NCBI RefSeq assembly: GCF_003018255.1
Contig: NZ_CP027440.1
Length of the DNA stretch: 64,000 nucleotides
DNA from: Escherichia coli
GTDB lineage: Bacteria; Pseudomonadota; Gammaproteobacteria; Enterobacterales; Enterobacteriaceae
Strand: one strand, 5' to 3'
Part shown: positions 46,712 to 46,777 of the stretch, piece after piece
Numbering within the stretch: the stretch's first letter is position 1
Layout of the letters: each line of letters starts with the position of its first letter
Position numbers and translations under genes: made by a program
The notes under the pieces: generated by a model
The model's input: only the letters and a program-made list of their open reading frames with translations
The model's database searches: none
What the model was told of the DNA's origin: nothing

Positions 46712-46726
46712 TGGTGTCAGGGCACC

Positions 46727-46760
46727 AAAAAAAACCGCCGAACATGTCGGCGGCTTTCTG
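46727..46760. terminator. bidirectional intrinsic terminator between convergent yfbM and nuoN
   Basis: A8-CCGCCGAACATGTCGGCGG-CTTTCT: the hairpin has an A-tract on one side (T-tract on the minus strand, ending the nuo operon) and a weaker T-rich tract on the other. Confidence 0.5.
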
Positions 46761-46777
46761 ACTTACAAACTGACTGC

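Follow-up and report, generated by a model that had tools for sequence, protein, structure and literature searches.

The short yfbM–nuoN spacer is the common form of the locus in Escherichia coli and carries a putative asymmetric terminator of the nuo operon

The genes yfbM and nuoN converge on a short spacer in the window, the 64-kb stretch of E. coli DNA that was analysed. Such a direct junction is the usual state in E. coli, and K-12, which carries additional genes at the site, is a minority reference. Taken as a whole, the site is probably best explained as a common null allele, left by an old deletion, in which an asymmetric terminator of the nuo operon would be the sole functional element of the spacer. 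The junction is nothing new in kind, as it is already visible in the annotation of thousands of RefSeq genomes.

The sequence-only reading had described yfbM and nuoN as convergent and 66 bp apart, with an element of A-tract, hairpin, and T-rich tail filling the spacer. The ORF coordinates and the spacer itself confirmed this description (Table 1): we identified an A8 run, a 7-bp hairpin, and a tail starting with CTTTCT. The 19-nt main hairpin has only one copy in the window. A second, smaller hairpin is followed by a T-run on neither strand and has no terminator character; it is variable between strains. Positions 45100 to 48300 are 100% identical to strain 2014C-3338, in which the RefSeq gene order is identical.

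Table 1. Features of the yfbM–nuoN interval, with positions numbered along the window.
Feature	Position	Strand	Description
yfbM	46208-46711	+	167 aa; DUF1877 (Pfam, E 3e-35); YfbM 98% aa identity to K-12
yfbM stop codon (TGA)	46709-46711	+	
yfbM–nuoN spacer	46712-46777		66 bp (ORF listing and direct reading)
Null-allele junction	46712-46729	strandless	K-12 homology stops at 46712 and restarts at 46730
Small weak hairpin, GGTGT-CAGG-GCACC	46713-46726		dG about -4.7
A8 (+ strand), the U8 tract of the nuo transcript	46727-46734	-	Directly 3' of the main hairpin
Main hairpin, CCGCCGA-ACATG-TCGGCGG	46735-46753		dG about -11.7 to -11.8 kcal/mol
Arms of the main hairpin	46735-46741 and 46747-46753		7 bp, 6 G-C; loop at 46742-46746
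Transcript tail in the yfbM direction, CTTTCTGACTT	46754-46764	+	4 T in the first 8; sub-threshold U-tract
nuoN stop codon	46778-46780	-	
nuoN	46778-48235	-	485 aa; last gene of the nuo (NADH:quinone oxidoreductase I) operon

On the minus strand, the nuo transcript reads GCCGCCGA-CAUGU-UCGGCGG and then U8, and the hairpin begins 24 nt after the nuoN stop codon, placing it just past the last stop of the operon. The hairpin is stable and GC-rich, with a short loop (7 bp, 6 G-C, 5-nt loop), and the U-tract lies immediately 3' of the stem. In this direction we obtained a dG of -11.7, a T-score of 5.27, and a d'Aubenton-Carafa d-score of about +38, an approximate value because the old formula was used with modern energy parameters. 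The minus strand of 46700-46790 folded with a z-score of -3.08, and 2 of 200 shuffles were equally good. The main hairpin therefore looks like a textbook intrinsic (Rho-independent) terminator of nuo. Its GC-rich 7-bp stem, 5-nt loop, uninterrupted U8, and location at the end of a long operon are those of canonical E. coli intrinsic terminators, from which it differs in being a prediction and in that its K-12 version is missing from a curated Term-seq list. A Rho-independent nuo terminator, made of this hairpin and the U8 that follows, would be the only functional element of the spacer.

The hairpin and U-tract after nuoN are kept in E. coli null alleles, K-12, E. whittamii, E. albertii, and E. 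fergusonii, and an equivalent hairpin with a U-tract also follows nuoN in Escherichia sp. E2748 and in another genus. The tract was U6-8 in the other alleles examined (Escherichia and one other genus) and U5 in K-12. Loops differ between relatives (CAUGU, AUUU, and GGAAUA), the equivalent hairpin of E. fergusonii, E2748, and the other genus having a different one. In a spacer alignment of eight diverse E. coli and E. whittamii, the stem was invariant and the mean column identity was 94%; the unvarying stem of these nine sequences speaks for conservation only and gives no evidence of covariation. The A-run was 7-9 nt long among these aligned null alleles and was interrupted in one E. coli (ACAAAAAA). 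Among E. coli strains, the nuo terminator thus shows a small homopolymer length polymorphism in its U-tract.

A consensus terminator scan omitted the hairpin on both strands, and we rescored it by hand. The miss on the minus strand was an artefact: a greedy stem of 13 pairs, including G-U, absorbed six of the U's and left a tail that was too short. Rfam searches at permissive E-values returned sroD, the fluoride riboswitch, and ryfA, all of which were chance matches far under the gathering scores. A literature search on yfbM, yfbN, yfbO, yfbP, and the nuoN terminator found nothing about the yfbM–nuoN junction.

In the yfbM direction the same hairpin is predicted to be marginal, and weak or partial termination is probably to be expected. 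The transcript continues into the tail CUUUCUGA, that is, C-UUU-C-U-G-A, which gave a T-score of 1.79 and a d-score of about -24, under the usual threshold; the plus-strand tail CTTTCTGA holds 4 T in 8, versus a scanner threshold of 5 in 8. The convergent units (yfbM on the plus strand, nuoN on the minus strand) do share one hairpin, but only the minus strand has an adequate U-tract. Of the bidirectional terminator proposed in the sequence-only reading, the half serving nuo is well matched by these scores, and the half serving yfbM is not. The poor U-tract (C-UUU-C-U) would stop yfbM transcripts only partly, and the remainder would run antisense into nuoN.

How the hairpin acts could be read in two other ways. 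It might terminate transcription efficiently in both directions, for yfbM as well as for nuo, a reading that we find doubtful. It draws on the convergent genes, on the single shared hairpin between A8 and a T-rich tail, and on an upstream A-tract able to pair with the UUU and extend the stem. Additionally, a stem longer by one G-C pair, as carried by some E. coli alleles, brings the yfbM-direction d-score above zero (about +7 at locus L003). Full-length RNA profiling in E. coli has reportedly revealed bidirectional intrinsic terminators between convergent genes, marked by A-tract/hairpin/U-tract symmetry. The window resembles them in its single shared hairpin and its upstream A-tract, whereas its symmetry is broken (A8/U8 versus CTTTCT), so that only one direction qualifies; with A6-7 on one side of the hairpin and U7 on the other, Escherichia sp. 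E2748 and the other genus come closer to symmetry. The scores of the window's own yfbM-direction tail, at 4 U in 8, argue against efficient two-way action, and the tail of E. whittamii is poorer still (CCUUCUCA). Furthermore, the plus-strand fold of 46700-46790 (z -1.54; 14 of 200 shuffles equally good) is not clearly above shuffles, and the K-12 Term-seq data list no 3' end at the hairpin.

That last observation bears on the nuo direction as well. The curated K-12 Term-seq table has no 3' end at 2,389,9xx-2,390,0xx on either strand (PMC7815308), and nuoN, yfbP, and yfbM are unmentioned in the TERMITe and SMRT-Cappable-seq supplements. The K-12 hairpin matches that of the window but is followed by only U5; the efficiency of the hairpin may be incomplete, and the K-12 version may be leaky. 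K-12 also has a Rho-dependent termination region at 2389543 (-), with a Rho score of 11.1 and p 2.9e-36, which was derived from DirectRNA-seq with versus without bicyclomycin (PMC7815308). It is antisense to yfbP and corresponds to about 11544 of our K-12 locus (L001), about 0.45 kb beyond the nuoN hairpin on the nuo strand (PMC7815308). The hairpin could accordingly serve chiefly as a stem-loop that stabilises the 3' end or blocks exonucleases, with the nuo transcript ended further downstream by Rho. Both the missing Term-seq end and the strong Rho-dependent region fit such an arrangement, which we nevertheless judge improbable, given that the U5 of K-12 is replaced in the window by U8, which makes a perfect tail for an intrinsic terminator, and that the U-tract is kept at 6-8 across genera. 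The Rho signal of K-12 may, moreover, originate from antisense promoters within the AT-rich cassette rather than from read-through of nuo.

The K-12 MG1655 annotation has the order yfbM-yfbN-yfbO-yfbP-nuoN (b2272-b2276), with yfbN on the minus strand and yfbO and yfbP on the plus strand. The statement in the sequence-only reading that K-12 has three extra genes, absent here, was therefore correct. The two strains share the flanking genes and the hairpin directly after nuoN, in which one loop base differs. They differ in the tail on the nuo side, U5-CUG in K-12 versus U8 in the window, and in the spacer, which measures 2610 bp with three genes in K-12 versus 66 bp. Based on a pairwise alignment, 17 window-specific bases (46713-46729) replace about 2560 bp of K-12. 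A repeat search at the borders of the K-12 cassette found no terminal inverted repeats and no target-site duplication, only short chance matches, and a comparison of the deletion end-points by eye across alleles found no convincing microhomology. With junction bases of its own on one side and about 2560 bp on the other, and with neither duplication nor terminal repeats, the site is not the clean indel that had been proposed. The GC content of the K-12 cassette segment is 39.8%, compared with 52% for the window, and the low GC extends over the whole rbn–nuoN interval, beyond the cassette alone.

We scored the site in 5426 complete E. coli genomes, detecting the direct junction by a 371-bp probe across yfbM-nuoN that matched as one place. 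The locus was present in 5423 genomes and the direct junction in 4214 (78%). A match to the K-12 cassette was found in 1015 genomes, in 985 of them at ≥99% identity, and about 29 genomes carried a yfbN-yfbO allele that is about 85% identical to K-12 and has no yfbP. The cross-genome synteny comparison that the sequence-only reading had put forward as a check thus went against its expectation: the majority show the same adjacency, as do E. albertii and E. whittamii.

These two species carry the null junction in homologous form, E. whittamii with the same junction and E. albertii with a diverged but recognisable one in a 63-bp spacer (the E. albertii locus was assigned by 99.4% identity to the type-strain contig). 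YfbN homologues are nearly confined to Escherichia and lie in the yfbM–nuoN interval wherever the context is visible. The order is nuoN, yfbN (71% aa), a 191-aa ORF, and yfbM in E. fergusonii, and nuoN, a 409-aa ORF, yfbO, yfbN (87% aa), and yfbM in Escherichia sp. E2748. In Escherichia sp. MOD1-EC7003, yfbN-like DNA (92% nt) lies downstream of yfbM, and the locus sequence ends before nuoN. In another enterobacterial genus (nuoN 87.7% nt), a YfbN-like gene (46% aa) directly follows nuoN and no yfbM is recognisable. A single YfbM contig scan supplied four Escherichia loci, one of which ends 14 nt after yfbM, and was supplemented by exact-protein look-ups.

From these gene orders, and with a cassette devoid of mobile-element features, yfbN beside nuoN looks ancestral, and the yfbN cassette looks old in Escherichia. 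The null allele is most likely a widespread old deletion of this cassette rather than an empty integration site, a direction of change that we hold with moderate confidence. Since the junction is homologous wherever found, we infer a single origin. The null allele would have arisen once, long ago, by loss of a low-GC, fast-evolving, yfbN-centred cassette; it would then have become the majority form in E. coli, and it is present in E. albertii and E. whittamii as well. The locus resembles the small variable accessory regions of E. coli that are kept by flanking homologous recombination in that it lacks mobility genes, has conserved flanks, and varies at a single fixed position, both by presence or absence and by divergent alleles (85% nt). 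It differs from them in that both states here span several Escherichia species, which makes the polymorphism older than typical strain-specific islets.

Two accounts of the site invoke incoming DNA instead. According to one, the empty site is ancestral, and the K-12 lineage and a few others gained yfbN-yfbO-yfbP as an islet by horizontal transfer; homologous recombination in the flanks could possibly have spread such a later gain. Acquisition agrees with the low GC of the cassette (39.8%), its presence in just 1015 of the 5426 genomes (about 19%), the near identity of 985 of these copies, as one clade would give, and the null allele in two outgroup species, E. whittamii and E. albertii. We still think acquisition unlikely, because yfbN adjoins nuoN in E. 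fergusonii and in a different genus, lies between yfbM and nuoN in Escherichia sp. E2748 and probably in MOD1-EC7003, and diverges increasingly with the distance of the relatives. Terminal repeats, duplication, integrase, and tRNA are all absent, and the low GC marks the entire rbn–nuoN interval and not the cassette only. The K-12 cassette has no phage match and no convincing plasmid match, the one plasmid hit being to a 365-kb plasmid-labelled record that we suspect to be chromosomal. The other account makes the spacer a preferred integration site for mobile DNA, as in the sequence-only proposal of an integration hotspot. Some IS elements have indeed landed there: the insertions and alleles at the site comprise IS200, ISEcB1, IS5, and at least three cassette alleles, IS903B and IS1 lie within the K-12 cassette, and cassette content varies by lineage. 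IS200 occupies the A-run in 101 genomes, but always at one point and in one orientation, which implies few events, and the null junction is intact in 78% of genomes. We found no tRNA genes in 40000-52000, nor any integrase or att-like repeat at the spacer. Among the cargo proteins, YfbN has a weak UBA-like match, YfbO belongs to no family, and YfbP has a TPR match; none shows integrase, recombinase, or mobile-element homology. Insertions are, furthermore, expected to persist in a convergent non-coding gap, where they do little harm. The spacer is supported only weakly as a hotspot, and we regard preferred integration as very improbable. An old deletion of the yfbN cassette remains our preferred explanation of the null allele.

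The insertions have structural details of their own. In the 101 genomes with IS200 (positions 2627-3340 of locus L003, and 100 other genomes), the element sits between the small and the main hairpins, and its end hairpins, each followed by a T-run, adjoin the nuo terminator. Strain 510016 (NZ_CP025851.1; 7553-9000 of locus L005) has the IS3-family element ISEcB1 inside the terminator hairpin, whose arms are thereby about 1.4 kb apart. The insertion amounts to a naturally occurring 'knock-out' of the nuo terminator and could serve to test what the hairpin does. In one further strain, an IS5-associated deletion starts inside elaD, stops shortly before the nuoN hairpin, and removes yfbK, yfbL, yfbM, and the K-12-type cassette.

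A second difference from K-12 lies nearby. The rbn–yfbL region of the window (44779-45133) retains only a 111-bp remnant of elaD (44966-45076) and has no yfbK, with the junction at 45076/45077; K-12 has elaD and yfbK between rbn and yfbL, an additional 2.9 kb or so. Few genomes share the junction of the window at 45076/45077: it occurs in only 210 of the 5426 complete E. coli genomes, far fewer than have the yfbM–nuoN adjacency. At 90% coverage, a 3.2-kb probe was split into two pieces in many genomes at yfbL (45134-46105), and annotations of these genomes call the corresponding gene a 'hypothetical protein' or mark it as frameshifted. yfbL seems to be polymorphic or decaying across a large part of E. 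coli.

The cassette itself has diverged rapidly. YfbN shows 65-87% aa identity among Escherichia, versus 96-98% for its neighbour YfbM, and 79% aa between two E. coli alleles (comparison loci L001 (K-12) 9711-11965, L004, L012, L015, and L016). Its partner genes differ by lineage, being yfbO and yfbP, yfbO and the 409-aa ORF, or the 191-aa ORF, which matches SMI1/KNR4 (SUKH-1) below threshold (E 2.4e-4). Such divergence and such changing partners bring to mind immunity or conflict genes; PADLOC gave no defence-system match for YfbN, YfbO, YfbP, or YfbM. According to a preprint, deletion of yfbO or yfbL in K-12 BW25113 leads to complementable resistance to phage N4 (10.1101/2025.09.29.679331). 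The window naturally lacks yfbO, as do about 80% of E. coli. One might suppose an ancient cross-species presence/absence polymorphism of the yfbN-centred cassette, possibly kept by balancing selection such as phage pressure, but we give this idea little credence. If it were true, the null allele of the window could be a natural phage-resistance-associated genotype, a link that is speculative. This thread, of an old, fast-evolving, and polymorphic yfbN cassette, concerns sequence that is absent from the window.

For E. coli, an expectation built on K-12 is corrected: the genes that seem to be 'missing' are accessory genes of K-12. Otherwise, the result matters little. In annotation and engineering, it is useful that the spacer tolerates insertions, and the hairpin should be treated as the predicted nuo terminator, with strong action in a single direction.
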